A stretch of DNA of 64,000 bases, taken from NCBI GenBank assembly GCA_017400345.1, contig JAFPTG010000003.1:5813-69812 (forward strand), given 5' to 3'. Made by a program: the position numbers and the translations under genes. Within the stretch, counting starts at the first letter, position 1; each line of letters starts with the position of its first letter. The stretch comes from Oscillospiraceae bacterium (GTDB taxonomy: Bacteria > Bacillota > Clostridia > Oscillospirales > Ruminococcaceae). A model generated the notes under the pieces. That model saw nothing but the letters and a program-made list of their open reading frames with translations. It was not told where the DNA came from and did not search any database. Positions 674-5,956 of the stretch are shown here, piece after piece.

Positions 674-883
674 TTTCCATTCATCCTACTCAATTGTTGA
701 TATTTATTATTTATTATACATCTTATTTTTAATTTTTACAAGAGTAATTGTACTATTTTTGCAGGTTTGTGAAGGTTTTAAATTGAAATTATCTGAAGTT
801 GCATACAAATATACAACTTTAAGATTAATTTCAGATTAAAATTGAACATTACTGTTCAAAAAAATAAAAGGAGAGAGTTAAAA

Positions 884-1231
884 ATGAGAGTTTCTTTTAC
901 AGGAATTGGAGAAACAGTGGTAACGTTTGAATCTGATAAAAAACTTGAAGTAGGAACGTTAGTTAACGTTGTTGAAAACGGCAAAGTGGCTGAAGCTAAA
1001 AAAAACGAGAAGTTTGTTGGAATTGTTGTGAATGCAACTGAACACGAAGCAAGTGTGCAGATCAAAGGCTACATTAAAACAAAATTTGAAGGCACAATTG
1101 AATATAATGCTCTGGGCTGTTGTAATCTGTGCTTGGGAGAGGAAGGGAAGTTAAAGTTAAGTGAAAAAGGACGTGAAGTTTTATTATTAGATATTAATAG
1201 TGAAACTAATGAAATTGGGATTTTTATGTAA
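884..1231 (+). CDS. Small hypothetical protein heading a phage-like capsid module (possible DUF2190-type head decoration protein)
   Basis: Track ORF 842-1231. The preferred start is ATG 884 (MRVSFTG...), 6 nt after AAAGGAGAGAG. It is 115 aa and looks beta-rich (EVGTLVNVVENGKVAEA...KFVGIVVNA). It lies immediately upstream of the prohead protease and capsid genes. The functional call is weak. Confidence 0.4.
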   Translation: MRVSFTGIGETVVTFESDKKLEVGTLVNVVENGKVAEAKKNEKFVGIVVNATEHEASVQIKGYIKTKFEGTIEYNALGCCNLCLGEEGKLKLSEKGREVLLLDINSETNEIGIFM

Positions 1232-1245
1232 AAGAGGAAACATTT

Positions 1246-2175
1246 ATGGAGAATAATGTAATAACACAAAATATTGATGCTGATTTAGAACTAATTAATA
1301 AACTTACTCGCAGACCGCTTAAAGCAGAAGAGGTGTATACATTTAATGTGGTACTGTGCGACAATGACCTTGACCGTGATTTTGAAGTATTTGATTTAAA
1401 ATGCTTATATGAATTAAAAGAACTGTTTTTAGGAAAGACGGGCATATTTGATCATGACCCAAAAGGGAGTAATCAAACATCTCGTATATTTTTTACAGAA
1501 GTTGTGCGAGATCCAATAAAAAGAACAAAGCTGGGGCAAGATTATTATATGTTGAAAGCTAAGGCCTATATGATTAGAAATGAAAAGAATAAAGATTTAA
1601 TAGAGGAGATAGATGGCGGAATAAAGAAAGAAGTGAGTATTGGCTGTAGCGTTTCTTGCGTTAAATGTTCGATATGTGGATGCAATACAAAAAAAGAAAA
1701 ATGTGAGCACGTGTTAGGAAATAAATATATTGTAAACGGAGAAGAACAATTGTGCTATCATGTTTTAGAAAGTGCAAATGACGCTTATGAATGGTCTTTT
1801 GTAGCAGTGCCAGCTCAAAGGCAGGCGGGTGTGGTAAAAAGTATAAGAAAGAAGTTTACAGATTCGTACGAAACTAACAATTTCGGCAACGAAGACCGAA
1901 CGCAGTTAGATAAGTACTTGGAATATATTTCACAACTAGAATCAGTTATTGGCGAATTTGAAGAGGAACTAAGATCGCAGGTAAAAAAATCATTTGCAGT
2001 TTTACAGCCAGAGTTAAAACTTTCTACAATAAAAAACATGATAGAAAAGTTAGATATTACAGAATTAAAAGAACTGAAAAAAGTACAAGACGAAAAAATG
2101 GGCAAGAATGTTATAATCCAGGCAGAGGGGCTAGAAACCTCAAAAGATGCAGATTTAACCAAGTTTTCAATTTAA
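1246..2175 (+). CDS. HK97-family (S78) prohead serine protease with a Cys-cluster insertion and a coiled-coil, scaffold-like C-terminal extension
   Basis: 309 aa with RBS AAGAGGAAA. It shows the S78 pattern: His in GIFDHDPKG, Ser in KKEVSIGCSV, and a distal strand YEWSFVAVPAQRQAGV. There is an inserted CVKCSICGC...KCEH cluster. The last ~110 aa are heptad-like (YLEYISQLESVIGEFEEELRSQ...ELKELKKVQDEK). Confidence 0.7.
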   Translation: MENNVITQNIDADLELINKLTRRPLKAEEVYTFNVVLCDNDLDRDFEVFDLKCLYELKELFLGKTGIFDHDPKGSNQTSRIFFTEVVRDPIKRTKLGQDYYMLKAKAYMIRNEKNKDLIEEIDGGIKKEVSIGCSVSCVKCSICGCNTKKEKCEHVLGNKYIVNGEEQLCYHVLESANDAYEWSFVAVPAQRQAGVVKSIRKKFTDSYETNNFGNEDRTQLDKYLEYISQLESVIGEFEEELRSQVKKSFAVLQPELKLSTIKNMIEKLDITELKELKKVQDEKMGKNVIIQAEGLETSKDADLTKFSI

Positions 2176-2195
2176 AAAGGAGGATATTTATTATT

Positions 2196-3194
2196 ATGGA
2201 GAGTTATAAAAGTGTAAAATTAGATAAAGATATGTATAGAGTGGCAAATAAAAGCTTTTCGGAAGTTTTAGAAGGCTATGATTGTTCAAGCAACTACAGA
2301 GAAAGTTCACTTGCAAATATAGATGCATTTCAGCGTCAGTTAAAGCGGTTCGATATAAGAGTAGGACGGAACAATTCAGATGAAGTAGAGAAATTTTTTA
2401 GAAGTGCGCAAACGGCCACATTATTTCCAGAATATGTTCTGCGTGCGGTAAAATCTGGCACAGAGGTAGTTAATGTACTTAACGAAATAATTGCGGTTAG
2501 AACAAAAATAGATAGTATGGATTACCGTGCGATATATTTTGAACAAGATGATGAACCTACAGTTATTGGGGAAGGAGCATCGATCCCTAGCGTTAATATA
2601 AAGTTAAAAGAAAATTTAGTGACATTAAAAAAGACAGGTCGGATGTTGGTAGTAGATTATGAAACTATTAAGAATAGAAAGATAGAAGTATTCACAATTG
2701 CATTAAAACAGATTGGTTATAAAATTGCGGAACAACAGCTAAAAAGTGCAATAGATGTTTTGATGAATGGTGATGGTAATTTTAAGCCAGATGTAAAAAC
2801 AATAAGTGGCGGTTTAAAGTTCGAAAATTTAATAGATTTATGGAACAGCTTTAGTGAATATAAAATGAACACAGTGTTAATTTCTCCTAACATGGCAAAA
2901 AAGATGCTGGGCCTTAAAGAAATTTTTAATCCATACAACGGGTTAAAGTTTGAATTAACAGGTCAGGTAGATACTCTTATGGGAGCTCGATTGCTAAAAT
3001 CTCAATTTGTACCAGATGATGTAATTATTGCTCTTGATAAAAACTTTGCTTTAGAAATGGTATGTTGCGGCGATATTCAAGTTGACTATGATAAATTAAT
3101 CGATAGACAGCTCAAACGTTCGACAATTACTTCAACTTATGGCTTTACCAGAATTTGTGAAGACGCAGTTAAGATTTTAAAATTTTCAGAGTAG
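2196..3194 (+). CDS. HK97-fold phage major capsid protein
   Basis: 332 aa with RBS AAAGGAGGA. It directly follows the prohead protease. The C-terminal third (GARLLKSQFVPDDVIIALDKNFALEMVCCGDIQVDYDKL...TITSTYGFTRICEDAVKILKF) has the pattern shared by HK97-type capsid and encapsulin shells. Confidence 0.65.
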   Translation: MESYKSVKLDKDMYRVANKSFSEVLEGYDCSSNYRESSLANIDAFQRQLKRFDIRVGRNNSDEVEKFFRSAQTATLFPEYVLRAVKSGTEVVNVLNEIIAVRTKIDSMDYRAIYFEQDDEPTVIGEGASIPSVNIKLKENLVTLKKTGRMLVVDYETIKNRKIEVFTIALKQIGYKIAEQQLKSAIDVLMNGDGNFKPDVKTISGGLKFENLIDLWNSFSEYKMNTVLISPNMAKKMLGLKEIFNPYNGLKFELTGQVDTLMGARLLKSQFVPDDVIIALDKNFALEMVCCGDIQVDYDKLIDRQLKRSTITSTYGFTRICEDAVKILKFSE

Positions 3195-3207
3195 TAAAAT
3201 AAACATA

Positions 3208-3234
3208 AAAATCCCCCTTAATAGGGGATTTTTT
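3208..3234 (+). terminator. Rho-independent terminator after the capsid gene
   Basis: AAAATCCCC / GGGGATTTT 9-bp stem, 7-nt loop, followed by a T-run. Confidence 0.7.
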
Positions 3235-3474
3235 ACATACACAAAAGACTAAAGTTTTTTTATTTATAGCTAGTTTTATGGGATACAACCCTTAAATAAA
3301 ATTTATAATATAACAACAAATAAATTCAAACATGATAATATTAATTACAAGATTGGTAAATTTATATAAATAAATCAACACGAATTACATAATTGACAAG
3401 CCAATTCCAATATGTTAGCATTAATATAAACATACAATTTAGCACAAAAGTACATAAAGGGAGCAGAGATTCTA

Positions 3475-3960
3475 ATGGAAGCAGGAGAGCTAGCAGTTAT
3501 AACTAAAGCAAAAGCTGTTTGCAATTATATTATAACAGTTACAGATAAATCCCCTAAAAAGTTTCGTTTTACTTTAATTGGCCGTATGCAAAATTATGCA
3601 CTAGATATTATTGAAGGAATGATTATGGCAAATGAAGTTTACGTTACGGAAAAGGGATTAGGCGTTAATATAGAAGCATTAAAAGAGAGGCAAAAATTAC
3701 AAAGGAATGTACTTACAAACATAAAACTATTAGCATATGTATCGCAACTTTCTATGGAACAAAAATGCATATTGCCAAAACAATATGAGCAAATTACAGA
3801 AAAGCTCTATACATGCCAAAACCTCTTGGGTGCCTGGATTAAAAGCGATTTAAAGATAACATCGGTATATCACACATTTTTAATGTGTAGATATATAGGG
3901 ATATGGTTGCATGGTTCTGGTTGCGTTCTCCAAACGCGGGCAATAGCAACAATGCGCTGA
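3475..3960 (+). CDS. avd: DGR accessory variability determinant (Avd; four-helix-bundle / 23S rRNA-IVS protein family)
   Basis: RBS AAAGGGAG. It has family-typical segments SPKKFRFTLIGRMQNYALDIIEGMIMANEVY and QNLLGAWIKSD. It sits directly upstream of a TR and a DGR-type RT. The ORF reads on into the TR before reaching a stop, so the last ~30 aa are probably not part of the conserved fold. Confidence 0.8.
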   Translation: MEAGELAVITKAKAVCNYIITVTDKSPKKFRFTLIGRMQNYALDIIEGMIMANEVYVTEKGLGVNIEALKERQKLQRNVLTNIKLLAYVSQLSMEQKCILPKQYEQITEKLYTCQNLLGAWIKSDLKITSVYHTFLMCRYIGIWLHGSGCVLQTRAIATMR

Positions 3961-4034
3961 ATGCTAATACTGGCAACTATGTGAATAACAATAACGTCCA
4001 CAATAGCAACAGGTGCGTCCCCGCATGGCCTTAA
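3906..4034 (+). repeat. DGR template repeat (TR), non-translated
   Basis: In the frame offset from avd it reads VAWFWLRSPNAGNSNNALNANTGNYVNNNNVHNSNRCVPAWP*. That is 13 AAY Asn codons within 26 codons, ending in a GC-rich GCGTCCCCGC (IMH*-like) segment. It lies between avd and the RT. A perfect 9-bp hairpin follows at 4043-4064 (GATGTTTTT-AAGG-AAAAACATC). The boundaries are approximate. Confidence 0.75.
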
Positions 4035-4322
4035 CGTCTGATGATGTTTTTAAGGAAAAACATCCGGTGAAGCTAATCATGAATTTGCTTCTTAACCTTA
4101 AGGCAAAGGAACCATATTCCTTTTTGACTGCAAACAAAACTAAATTTATGTGGATTTGATTATCGGTTTTGTTAAGCAGCAGAAAAATACATACCGCCGG
4201 AAGGAAAAATGTATAAAGGAAATACTACTTAGAAGGATACTTTTGGACTGTGGCGCAAGCCTCGGCGGCTAGCGGAAATAGTAAAATAGGAAATAGTTAA
4301 AAATTAAGGGGGAGTATTACAA

Positions 4323-5381
4323 TTGTATGAAAAATTAACTGATTTTGCGAGTATTTATCAGGCATATAAAAAAACAGCAAAAGGAAAAAACATGATAAAA
4401 ACGAGGTAGTACGTTATGAAACAAATTTACATATGCAATTATGGCGTCTAAAAGAAAGAATAGAAAATAAGACTATTAAAATTGGTGGTTACCATAAATT
4501 TATGGTGTTTGATCCTAAAAAACGAGAGATCCAAGCATTAAGCTTTTCAGACAGAGTATTTCAACACCTGCTGTGTGATAAAGTGCTGATGCCATATTTT
4601 GAACCCAAATTAATTTATGATAATGCTGCGTGCAGAAAGAACAAAGGCACGCACTTTGCTCAAAACCGTTTCACTGGGTTTTTAAGAGATCACTATAAAA
4701 AGTATGGTAGTAAAGGATACATTCTAAAATATGATGTCAAAGGATATTTTAATTCTATACATCATAAAGTATTAAAAGAAAAACTTAAAAATTTTCCAGA
4801 CAAAGAGATTAAAGAGCTTCTCTATTATATTATAGATAGCTACGAAAGTGAACCAGAACGAGGTATACCCATGGGGAACCAATCTAATCAATGGTTTGCA
4901 CTTTACTATCTAGATCGCCTTGATAGAACTATAAAAGAGAAGTTGCATATCAAATATTATATCAGATATATGGATGATGGAGTGCTATTACACCAAGACA
5001 AAGGATATTTAAAAGAATGCCTTGTAGTTATAAAGGAACAAGCGACCAAAGACAAACTTGAATTTAATAAAAAAACAGAGATTTTTCCATTATGCCAAAG
5101 AGTAGATTTTTTAGGCTTCCACTTTTATCTTAACAGATACTGGAAAAGTCATAAAAAAGCTTAGAACATCTAATAAAAAACGGTTTAAAAGACGTCTCAA
5201 GCAATTTGAAAGACAATATGCAAAAGGGAAGATAACTTACGAAGAAATAAAAAGAAGTCTTGCCAGCTACCAAGGCCATCTAAAGCACGGTCATACATAT
5301 AAACTCAGAAAACATGTAATTTCTAATATAAAATTCAAGCAGAAAACAAACAATAATGAAGAAATGGGAAATAGCCTTTAA
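4323..5381 (+). pseudogene. DGR-type reverse transcriptase, split into three frame segments by two frameshifts
   Basis: A TTG at 4323 follows AAGGGGGA and starts LYEKLTDFASIYQAYKKTAKGK, which stops at TAG 4407. The central segment is track ORF 4433-5164 and is open from 4370. It contains IPMGNQSNQWFALYY (the DGR SQ-type motif) and YIRYMDDGV. The C-terminal segment returns to the first frame: LTDTGKVIKKLRTSNKKRFKRRLKQF...GHLKHGHTYKLRKH, with its stop at 5379-5381. The shifts lie in the A6 run at 4385-4390 and near 5128-5133. Confidence 0.8.
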
Positions 5382-5396
5382 AAGGGCTATTTTTTA
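5371..5396 (+). terminator. Terminator after the RT
   Basis: ATAGCC..GGCTAT stem overlapping the RT stop codon, followed by TTTTT. Confidence 0.55.
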
Positions 5397-5416
5397 TTTT
5401 AAACTTAATAACATCA

Positions 5417-5689
5417 CTAAACTCTTGGTTTACCACCGCCTCCAGCACCAATAGAACTGTTAGAAGTACTGCTGCCTTTATTTGCGCTAGAAGACTGACT
5501 ACTGGAACTTTTATTTGTACTAGAAGATTGCTTACTGGTAGTGCTAGACTTGCTGGTTGAAGTATTACTGCTAGAGCCCCCAGCATCTGCACGAGCCAGA
5601 GGAACACCTATACAAACCATTTGGCCACACAACAATACAAATATACTTGTAACTAAATACCCTAAACTCCTTTTACTGTTTTTTAACAT
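5417..5689 (-). CDS. Small secreted Ser/Thr/Asn-rich low-complexity protein
   Basis: 90 aa. AGGAG lies 9 nt upstream of the ATG. The signal-peptide-like N-terminus is MLKNSKRSLGYLVTSIFVLLCGQMVCIGVPLARA. About 55 aa of S/T/N/K-rich sequence follow, ending in GAGGGGKPRV. Confidence 0.55.
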   Translation of the reverse strand: MLKNSKRSLGYLVTSIFVLLCGQMVCIGVPLARADAGGSSSNTSTSKSSTTSKQSSSTNKSSSSQSSSANKGSSTSNSSIGAGGGGKPRV

Positions 5690-5956
5690 TAATATCGACT
5701 CCTAACGTTATTTTAATTTTTATTTATAAACTATACAAAACAGGTAGCAAAGAGATAAAACAACTACGCTACCTGTTTTTGGGGAAGTAAATGATTAATA
5801 AAGGAAATAGTAAATTAATTATACAGCAAATTGGAAAGAATGTAAATACATGGAAATAAATTTTCGACAAATTAAATTTTGAAAAACAATTTTTTCCCGT
5901 TCTTAGTGATAAGAAAAGCAAATAAAAATAAATTATTTTTATTTGCTTTTTGGCTT

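Follow-up and report, generated by a model that had tools for sequence, protein, structure and literature searches.

A chromosomal diversity-generating retroelement with a remote surface-protein target, probably inactivated recently in one species of a small-genome Oscillospiraceae genus

To our knowledge, diversity-generating retroelements (DGRs) constitute the only natural systems of targeted hypermutation known in prokaryotes. The prototype comes from the Bordetella phage BPP-1, where the target gene mtd is followed by avd (accessory variability determinant), a template repeat (TR), a spacer element (Sp) and the reverse transcriptase (RT) gene brt. Here we describe a cassette with the order avd-TR-spacer-RT in a stretch of 64,000 nucleotides from an Oscillospiraceae bacterium (assembly GCA_017400345.1, contig JAFPTG010000003.1, positions 5,813 to 69,812). 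This stretch is called the window (G000:C16:5813-69812); G000 denotes the source genome, G001 and G002 denote species of the same genus, and coordinates without a prefix are window positions. The cassette is confirmed as a genuine DGR. In all likelihood it is a standard chromosomal DGR that acts in trans on a remote surface-protein gene and has recently been inactivated in the source species.

The target of a DGR need not lie beside its core. Of 372 DGRs surveyed, 45 had non-adjacent targets and in 10 the distance exceeded 100 kb; remote targets occur almost only in DGRs that have no phage association (Wu et al. 2018, PMC5758913). In Treponema denticola, gains and losses of the DGR core between close relatives leave target genes behind (Nimkulrat et al. 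2016, PMC4891356), and large metagenome surveys miss remote-target DGRs by design (PMC8144416). The domain DUF6273 is a documented DGR target, both in Faecalibacterium prophages (PMC11792537) and in the 'tentaclins', in which an N-terminal DUF6273 domain resembling C-type lectins (C-lec) is followed by Ig-like domains (nd4, 569 aa; nd12, 579 aa; PMC10743442). Remote targets, DUF6273 targets and the loss of DGRs are each already documented, and the locus in the window is a known kind of system. What is particular to it is the absence of an adjacent target in the genus, the conserved phage head module upstream, the small genomes of 0.7-0.9 Mb, and the presence of three decay stages at one orthologous locus.

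How does the locus compare with these described systems? As in BPP-1, the cassette has the order avd-TR-spacer-RT, an Avd protein, a TR rich in AAY codons and adenine-specific differences between the TR and its variable repeat (VR). It also has a GC-rich 3' boundary shared by both repeats, a candidate for a site like that of the initiation of mutagenic homing (IMH), and a conserved non-coding spacer at the position of the Sp RNA (PMC12875486). In contrast to BPP-1, the target is found on another contig and consists of DUF6273 and beta-sandwich domains, not of Mtd; the spacer is about 300 nt long instead of about 140 nt; and the cassette is chromosomal, in a reduced Oscillospiraceae genome, with damage to both RT and avd. 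The locus resembles the cellular DGRs with remote targets, of which Treponema denticola is one example, in that the VR is far from the RT/TR core and the target is a secreted surface protein. It differs from them in that all three species lack an adjacent target, and in the phage head module beside the core.

The resemblance to the tentaclins lies in the architecture of the target, a protein of 588 aa with an N-terminal, VR-bearing DUF6273 domain and beta-sandwich domains after it. A W[W/F]WLRSP motif is common to this protein and to the target of a prophage DGR from the same bacterial family (locus L005). Unlike the targets of the tentaclin and Faecalibacterium prophage systems, it is encoded on the chromosome next to permease and dnaJ genes and not in a phage tail module, it has a signal-peptide-like N-terminus, and it has no match in PHROG. 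Tentaclins are receptor-binding proteins encoded by phages or prophages, and the target described here is not encoded in such an element.

Parts of the cassette and its remote target

The RT gene lies on the plus strand in three pieces. The first, comprising the N-terminal 22-23 codons (4323-4409), is read in frame 0 and stops at the TAG at 4407-4409 after a +2 indel, whereupon the coding sequence continues in frame 2. The fingers and palm are encoded by the second piece (4382-5164, frame 2), whose open reading frame (ORF) from the ATG at 4433 measures 243 aa and has the YMDD motif at 4967-4978. A +1 indel at 5132 returns the C-terminal 82 codons (5133-5381) to frame 0. The second piece matches RVT_1 (E 4.8e-17) and the PHROG RT family (E 7e-82). 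Among solved structures, the best match of the RT is PDB 8ub7, a 328-aa entry named 'Reverse transcriptase' (E 2.3e-23), and both IGSLTSQ and YMDD are in view in the alignment; a group II intron RT (6ar1) and Drt3a are matched at E 1.5e-7 and E 0.026. On the strength of these motifs we take 8ub7 to be the BPP-1 enzyme, bRT; a literature search for the entry returned nothing. The scores against NCBIfam models of other RT classes are all far under the curated cut-offs, with 81 of 300 bits for the group II intron model, 62 of 200 for Drt and 36 of 235 for the retron model.

When one genome per species was scanned, 411 relatives of the RT came up, and the best 80 loci were searched for repeats. 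At 53 of these 80 there is a repeat pair in cis in which at least 80% of the mismatches fall at adenines of the RT-proximal copy, as read on the RT strand; the remainder are mostly on short contigs. The relatives include members of Saccharibacteria, Woesearchaeota and gut Bacillota, all of which are rich in DGRs. These sequence comparisons support the placement of the RT with DGR RTs and not with those of retrons, group II introns or Abi/DRT systems. An initial annotation of the window had named the opposite placement, together with the absence of an Avd match, as the outcome that would speak against a DGR. The adenine-biased repeats of the 53 relatives point the other way, as do the best match to 8ub7 and the matches to Avd models.

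The avd ORF (3475-3960, plus strand) encodes 161 aa and has a conserved core at 3475-3853. It had been proposed from the outset to encode an Avd-type protein, and it does match the relevant profiles, namely PHROG 'Avd protein of DGR' (E 2e-19), NCBIfam DivGenRetAVD (E 1.1e-13, 51 bits under an 80-bit cut-off) and Pfam bAvd (E 1.1e-8, 36 bits under a 40-bit cut-off).

The TR (3912-4024, plus strand) is 113 nt long and contains 33 adenines. It aligns without gaps to a VR of the same length on another contig (G000:C7:9526-9638, minus strand), which is its sole partner in the assembled genome; the repeat search found no VR inside the window. There are 11 mismatches between the two, ten at adenines of the TR and one a C>T. 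For a TR with 29% A, this bias has a binomial P of about 4e-5 by our own arithmetic. When the whole assembly was scanned with adenines ignored, the TR and the VR were the sole copies, with one mismatch in 80 non-A positions. The A-rich template with 13 AAY codons that the initial annotation had described is thus present, with exactly 13 such codons in the frame of the target, and the genome-wide TR/VR search that it had recommended uncovered a VR with adenine-specific differences in trans. In the VR, nine of the 13 Asn codons have turned into codons for H, S, Y, T, Y, S, T, Y and Y; a Tyr/Ser-rich outcome of the same kind has been reported for bRT on AAC codons (PMC12875486). With 13 Asn codons, about 1e15 protein variants are possible (15^13, own arithmetic). 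The TR is 94.7% identical to that of G002.

At their 3' ends, TR and VR have in common the GC-rich 15-mer CAGGTGCGTCCCCGC (4010-4024, plus strand), and right after it the two diverge completely. The GC-rich motif GGTGCGTCCCCGC is found in the genome only at the TR and the VR, and a 14-nt core of the shared end also closes both VRs of G002. By analogy with the BPP-1 model, this end would represent an IMH*/IMH-like boundary (PMC3240598, PMC12875486).

The spacer between TR and RT (4025-4322, plus strand) is the candidate for the Sp element of the DGR RNA. The initial annotation had drawn attention to a perfect 9-bp hairpin followed by about 260 nt of further spacer, and both are there. The hairpin, which has a 4-nt loop (GATGTTTTT AAGG AAAAACATC; 4043-4064, plus strand), can be read directly, appears in the minimum-free-energy fold and is 100% conserved in G002; the rest of the spacer (4065-4322) measures 258 nt. 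In the first 111 nt (4025-4135), hairpin included, there are no substitutions against G002, compared with 82% identity in the intergenic DNA upstream and 88-90% in coding sequence. The fold of the whole spacer has a z-score of -2.28. No Rfam match was obtained in 3200-5700 at E <= 1, and an nhmmer search of 79 further DGR loci in public genomes found no spacer homologues. Besides G002 and the remnant in G001, there is a distant homologous locus from RUG11259, which is 60% identical and shares short islands only. The invariant 111 nt would fit a spacer RNA that recruits RT-Avd and primes the cDNA, as in BPP-1 (PMC12875486).

How would the intact element have worked? The parts and the adenine-specific TR/VR pair are observed directly, and the transcription unit, priming and homing are modelled here on the BPP-1 paradigm. 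A single transcript from a promoter near 3400 would carry avd, the TR, the structured spacer and the RT, and a complex of Avd and RT would bind the spacer RNA. The cDNA would be primed at the GC-rich 3' end of the TR, with misincorporation opposite template adenines. It would then replace the homologous 113-nt VR, guided by an adenine-free 5' stretch and by the shared GC-rich 3' end.

The target gene is an intact ORF of 588 aa (C7:8673-10439, minus strand) with a signal-peptide-like N-terminus, in which the VR corresponds to residues ~266-303. It is flanked by an amino-acid permease gene on one side and by dnaJ-dnaK-grpE-hrcA on the other. Residues 150-309 score above the gathering threshold of Pfam DUF6273, a domain whose C-terminal end bears the VR. 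The initial annotation had expected a target of the DUF1566/C-type-lectin type; the domain being DUF6273, the DUF1566 part of that expectation did not hold. A model of residues 40-315 (predicted local distance difference test score, pLDDT, 89) has one significant match among solved structures, the IgA peptidase 9qa6 of Thomasclavelia ramosa (E 4e-4; query-normalised TM-score, TMq, 0.48), and the N-terminal domain of that peptidase is annotated as DUF6273 (PMC12402451). In the full-length model, residues ~305-588 form beta-strand-rich domains; searches against PDB and BFVD returned generic tandem beta-sandwich proteins only, among them pilins and a TIE protein.

The target belongs to a family of paralogs with three to six members per genome. 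The source genome has two further members (on C8 and C13), neither of which has a VR or a TR-like stretch. The proteins P0030, P0036 and P0004 are almost 100% identical over their C-terminal ~280 residues and ~70-90% identical in their N-terminal DUF6273 halves, a pattern that points to paralogs or strains having exchanged sequence by recombination or gene conversion. In P0002, P0031 and P0034, from three other assemblies, a frameshift swaps the last ~50 residues. A GC-rich hairpin (TGCTGCTG-CGC-CAGCAGCA) lies ~37 nt past the end of the VR and is conserved at all three VRs of G000 and G002. Since this hairpin codes for an Ala/Ser linker, its conservation is uninformative and it is not claimed here as a homing hairpin.

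Lesions in the source lineage and the state of the locus in sister species

Compared with G002, the RT has a +2 indel within 4385-4391 (AAAGGAAAAAACATGAT against AAAGG--GAAACATAAT) and a +1 indel at 5132 (CTTAACAG against CTT-ACAG). The two indels leave the N- and C-terminal pieces in one frame and the catalytic core in another. The YMDD motif is present and the frame is broken twice, whereas the RT of G002 is uninterrupted over 350 aa. The initial annotation had credited the RT with both YMDD and the SQ motif characteristic of DGRs. YMDD stands, in an RT now seen to be split into three frame pieces; the SQ motif does not. In place of the motif 4 signature [I/L/M]GxxxSQ the window has M-G-N-Q-S-N-Q, with an Asn codon at 4886-4888 where G002 (GNQSSQ) and 19 of 21 relatives have Ser, and the loss of the motif is derived in the G000 lineage. 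In motif 7, an Arg codon (5099-5101) replaces the Gly found in 18 of 21 relatives. The RTs of G000 and G002 differ at 29 amino acids; when these differences were polarised with 21 other DGR RTs, 15 apparently derived states fell to G000 and seven to G002.

The avd gene is damaged as well. An 11-nt deletion between 3853 and 3854, as judged against G002, took out the ancestral stop codon and altered the C-terminus, so that the ORF continues 49 nt into the TR and ends in ~33 aberrant residues. By comparison, the Avd of G002 is uninterrupted, measures 131 aa and ends in ...SDLKRFGK*, and G001 still has the 11 nt that are missing from G000. With the RT frameshifted twice and the stop codon of avd lost, the DGR of G000 is probably no longer active, and a broken cassette would leave the VR fixed as one variant.

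Are these lesions real? Contigs from SRR30827656, ERZ1051769 and ERZ27280436, each assembled independently, contain the 243-aa RT fragment in identical form, and the identical 161-aa Avd is found in five independent assemblies, these three together with ERZ28612962 and ERZ27256782. Four of the assemblies span one or both of the RT indel sites and have the same indels, with 1-3 other base differences over ~2 kb. The recurrence of the same lesions in three to five independent metagenome assemblies means that they are not assembly errors. An apparent extra RT deletion in locus L115 proved to be a 100-N scaffold gap and not biology.

The VR is equally constant. It is identical at 113 of 113 positions, the C>T included, in the target genes of ERZ1051769 and ERZ27280436 (L119 and L120), and outside the VR these genes differ from that of G000 by 4-5 substitutions and 8 gap positions. 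The VR residues are also the same in the proteins P0002, P0031 and P0034. Across the assemblies compared, therefore, the VR does not vary between populations in the manner of ongoing diversification. The VR of a more distant lineage, L121 (Logan SRR18314298), differs from the TR of G000 at 18 A and 2 T positions, and fits this TR better than that of G002. Thus, templates of the G000 type appear to have written different variants in the past and to have been used repeatedly. The lesions, their reproducibility and the frozen VR are direct observations, and from them we infer the loss of activity.

The locus can be followed in two further species. G002 is a metagenome-assembled genome (MAG) from goat caecum, Oscillospiraceae bacterium RGIG1955, in which the penicillin-binding protein (PBP) gene, head module, DGR and uvrA are syntenic with those of the window at ~90% nucleotide identity. 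Its locus is intact, and it has two VRs on another contig. One of them, VRb, has 15 of its 16 mismatches at A and lies at the locus orthologous to the G000 target, in the syntenic order permease-target-dnaJ. In the other (G002:C8:224258-224373, L013), a 1-nt deletion relative to the TR splits the target into two ORFs; homing could have generated this frameshift, and Wu et al. note such cases (PMC5758913). G001 has the same neighbourhood around a remnant. In this species avd is frameshifted, the segments corresponding to 4010-4054 (the 3' end of the TR and one arm of the hairpin, the 5' arm) and 4194-5146 (most of the RT) are deleted, and the target homologues carry stops. None of the three species has an adjacent target. 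As read from these assemblies, the genus holds a decay series in which the cassette is intact in G002, frameshifted in G000 and largely deleted in G001.

The timing of the damage can be estimated from the ratio of nonsynonymous to synonymous substitution rates (dN/dS). For the RT, this ratio against G002 is 0.04, as low as that of uvrA, which indicates that strong purifying selection acted during almost the entire period since G000 and G002 split and makes the lesions recent. The third RT piece, on its own, is 92% identical to the C-terminus of the G002 enzyme, with a dN/dS of 0.037. Taken together, the synteny and the states of the three species indicate that the genus inherited both the DGR and its remote target from its common ancestor and that its species are losing them independently.

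A different arrangement is found elsewhere in the family. At L005 (G028:C7:3863-7579) a classical prophage DGR, with the order target-avd-TR-RT, lies beside lysis genes, and its C-terminal VR has the same WWLRSP...VAPF motif as the G000 target. It is plausible that this locus is a model for the phage ancestor of the G000 cassette.

Weighing the explanations

Several points weigh against a recently inactivated DGR that acted in trans on the DUF6273 protein. The Avd matches fall short of the curated cut-offs of Pfam and NCBIfam. A Foldseek search with the target domain gave no significant match to C-type lectins (lectin matches at E > 3), and the C-lec fold of the target is for this reason treated as supported by the literature only. 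The evidence on the lesions and the VR consists of assembled sequences, in which within-sample heterogeneity of the VR and minority intact RT alleles would go unseen. As the assemblies are 99.3-99.9% identical, the VR may be shared because the strains are close kin or under strong selection and not because the DGR is dead, and in single samples 25-50% of DGRs are without recent activity (Roux et al., PMC8144416). The genome is 88.5% complete, and the missing part may contain a second RT or further VRs. Some residual RT expression is also conceivable, as the three RT pieces are open, dN/dS is low and the shifts fall on the slip-prone sequences A_AAA_AAC and CUU_A.

The last of these points can be developed into an account in which the DGR is still active through recoding. 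The first break would be bridged either at A_AAA_AAC (4385-4391), where ribosomes would slip by -1, or by slippage of transcription within the A6 run; a +1 slip at CUU_A (5129-5132) would bridge the second, and full-length RT would be made at a deliberately low, regulated level. The two shifts (+2 and +1) do compensate each other. Read by eye, a -1 slip on the heptamer leads from the N-terminal piece into the RT core in a frame that agrees with G002 (...AKGKN-HDKNEVVRYETNLHMQ...), and the slip from CUU to UUA is that of the +1 site of yeast Ty1. Moreover, each RT piece is open, the RT is under the purifying selection described above, and every assembly that spans the lesions shows them. However, the RTs of G002 and of 20 of the 21 other relatives are plain and uninterrupted, with no slippery sites at these positions, and programmed recoding sites are normally conserved. 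Indels favour runs of A, so a slippery-looking context is expected by chance, and the +1 site has no evident stimulatory structure or slow A-site codon. The same lineage has also undergone the Ser-to-Asn change in the SQ motif, the Gly-to-Arg change in motif 7 and the loss of the avd stop, and its VR is identical in three assemblies. Continued activity by this route is therefore considered unlikely. Its stronger form, in which the compensating frameshifts are a recoding switch that yields rare full-length RT, hypermutation is throttled and not dead, and the DGR stands under double programmed frameshifting, is very unlikely. If, on the other hand, the frameshifts and the avd deletion were sequencing or assembly errors, the real genome would have an intact and active DGR. 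The fragmentation of the MAG (29 contigs, 88.5% complete) and the position of one indel in a homopolymer are in keeping with this idea, which is nevertheless highly improbable: the identical RT fragment comes from three independent assemblies and the identical Avd from five, the indels are the same at the nucleotide level, and an 11-nt deletion is untypical of sequencing error.

Could the VR of a defective cassette be diversified in trans, by another RT and Avd, whether from the ~11% of the genome that is unassembled or from a co-resident phage? The perfect preservation of the TR and of the first 111 nt of the spacer would be consistent with this, as would the incompleteness of the genome and the occurrence in the same family of prophage DGRs with DUF6273-type VRs, such as L005. 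By contrast, no second match to RVT_1 or Avd was found in the 769 kb assembled, and the spacer RNA that a DGR RT-Avd complex recognises is its own (PMC12875486). Within the family, the closest RT besides this one is 36% identical, the nhmmer search of 79 other DGR loci gave no spacer homology, and the VR is frozen across assemblies. Help from a second system is accordingly given very little credence. As for the notion that the RT belongs to a retron, a group II intron or an Abi/DRT system and that the A-rich repeat is a coincidental paralogous fragment, partial PADLOC and NCBIfam matches to group II, Drt3a, UG and retron models do exist, as they would for any RT. These are far under their cut-offs, the match to 8ub7 is 16 orders of magnitude better than that to the group II RT, the neighbouring gene is avd, TR and VR mismatch specifically at adenines, and 53 of the 80 closest relatives can be shown to be DGRs; an RT of another class is effectively refuted. 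What is left as by far the likeliest account is a standard chromosomal DGR that served a remote surface-protein gene in trans and was recently inactivated in the source species.

Genomic setting and significance

The assembly of the source genome comprises 769 kb in 29 contigs, is 88.5% complete and has 35% G+C. Genome size in the genus is 0.7-0.9 Mb (G000, G001 and G002, 88-97% complete), against 1.1-3.1 Mb in 34 other sampled genera of the same family. The genus is a strongly reduced Oscillospiraceae lineage of the ruminant gut and is possibly dependent on a host or partner.

The order of the locus is PBP gene, phage-type head module, DGR cassette, small convergent gene and uvrA. The initial annotation had set the element among core genes, between the PBP gene and uvrA, but its surroundings are not core genes only: immediately to its left lie the three genes of a phage head module (842-3194). 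The module, which adjoins the DGR on its upstream side, encodes a virion structural protein (phrog_4588), a protein with a weak match to head proteases (phrog_16951) and a major head protein (phrog_3922, E 5e-82). Within 5 kb of it, neither a portal nor a terminase gene was found. The module is syntenic in G002 and G001 and has dN/dS values of 0.04-0.14 against G002; it looks maintained and not rotting. The module may be what remains of the prophage that introduced the DGR, or else a capsid that has been domesticated.

Upstream of avd lies a promoter-like site (3393-3421, plus strand), consisting of TTGACA, 17 nt and TG-TAGCAT; it scored 10 of 12 matches in a consensus scan, has an extended -10 TG, and is assigned a putative promoter function. 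The region around it is 91.5% identical to G002, compared with 82% for the intergenic DNA further upstream. A pattern scan detected a terminator-like hairpin at the end of the RT (5369-5392, unstranded), which the cassette would have in common with the small convergent gene. The latter (5417-5689, minus strand) encodes a secreted, Ser/Thr/Asn-rich protein of 90 aa, of low complexity and fast-evolving. Only its signal peptide is kept in G002 (67% identity over 24 aa), where the homologue is S/T-rich too.

What does the locus add to the biology of DGRs? It brings no change to the known mechanism, and its value is that of a well-resolved natural history. The slippery contexts at both RT shifts are probably a by-product of indels arising in runs. 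The intact cassette of G002 and the broken one of G000 form a near-identical pair for functional comparison. In this genus of small-genome Oscillospiraceae from the ruminant gut, the cassette appears to have been inherited vertically at one chromosomal site, and its life and death can be seen in three stages in three species. The locus thereby suggests how a phage DGR and a family of tentaclin-like adhesins may be domesticated by the cell and then discarded in the course of genome reduction.

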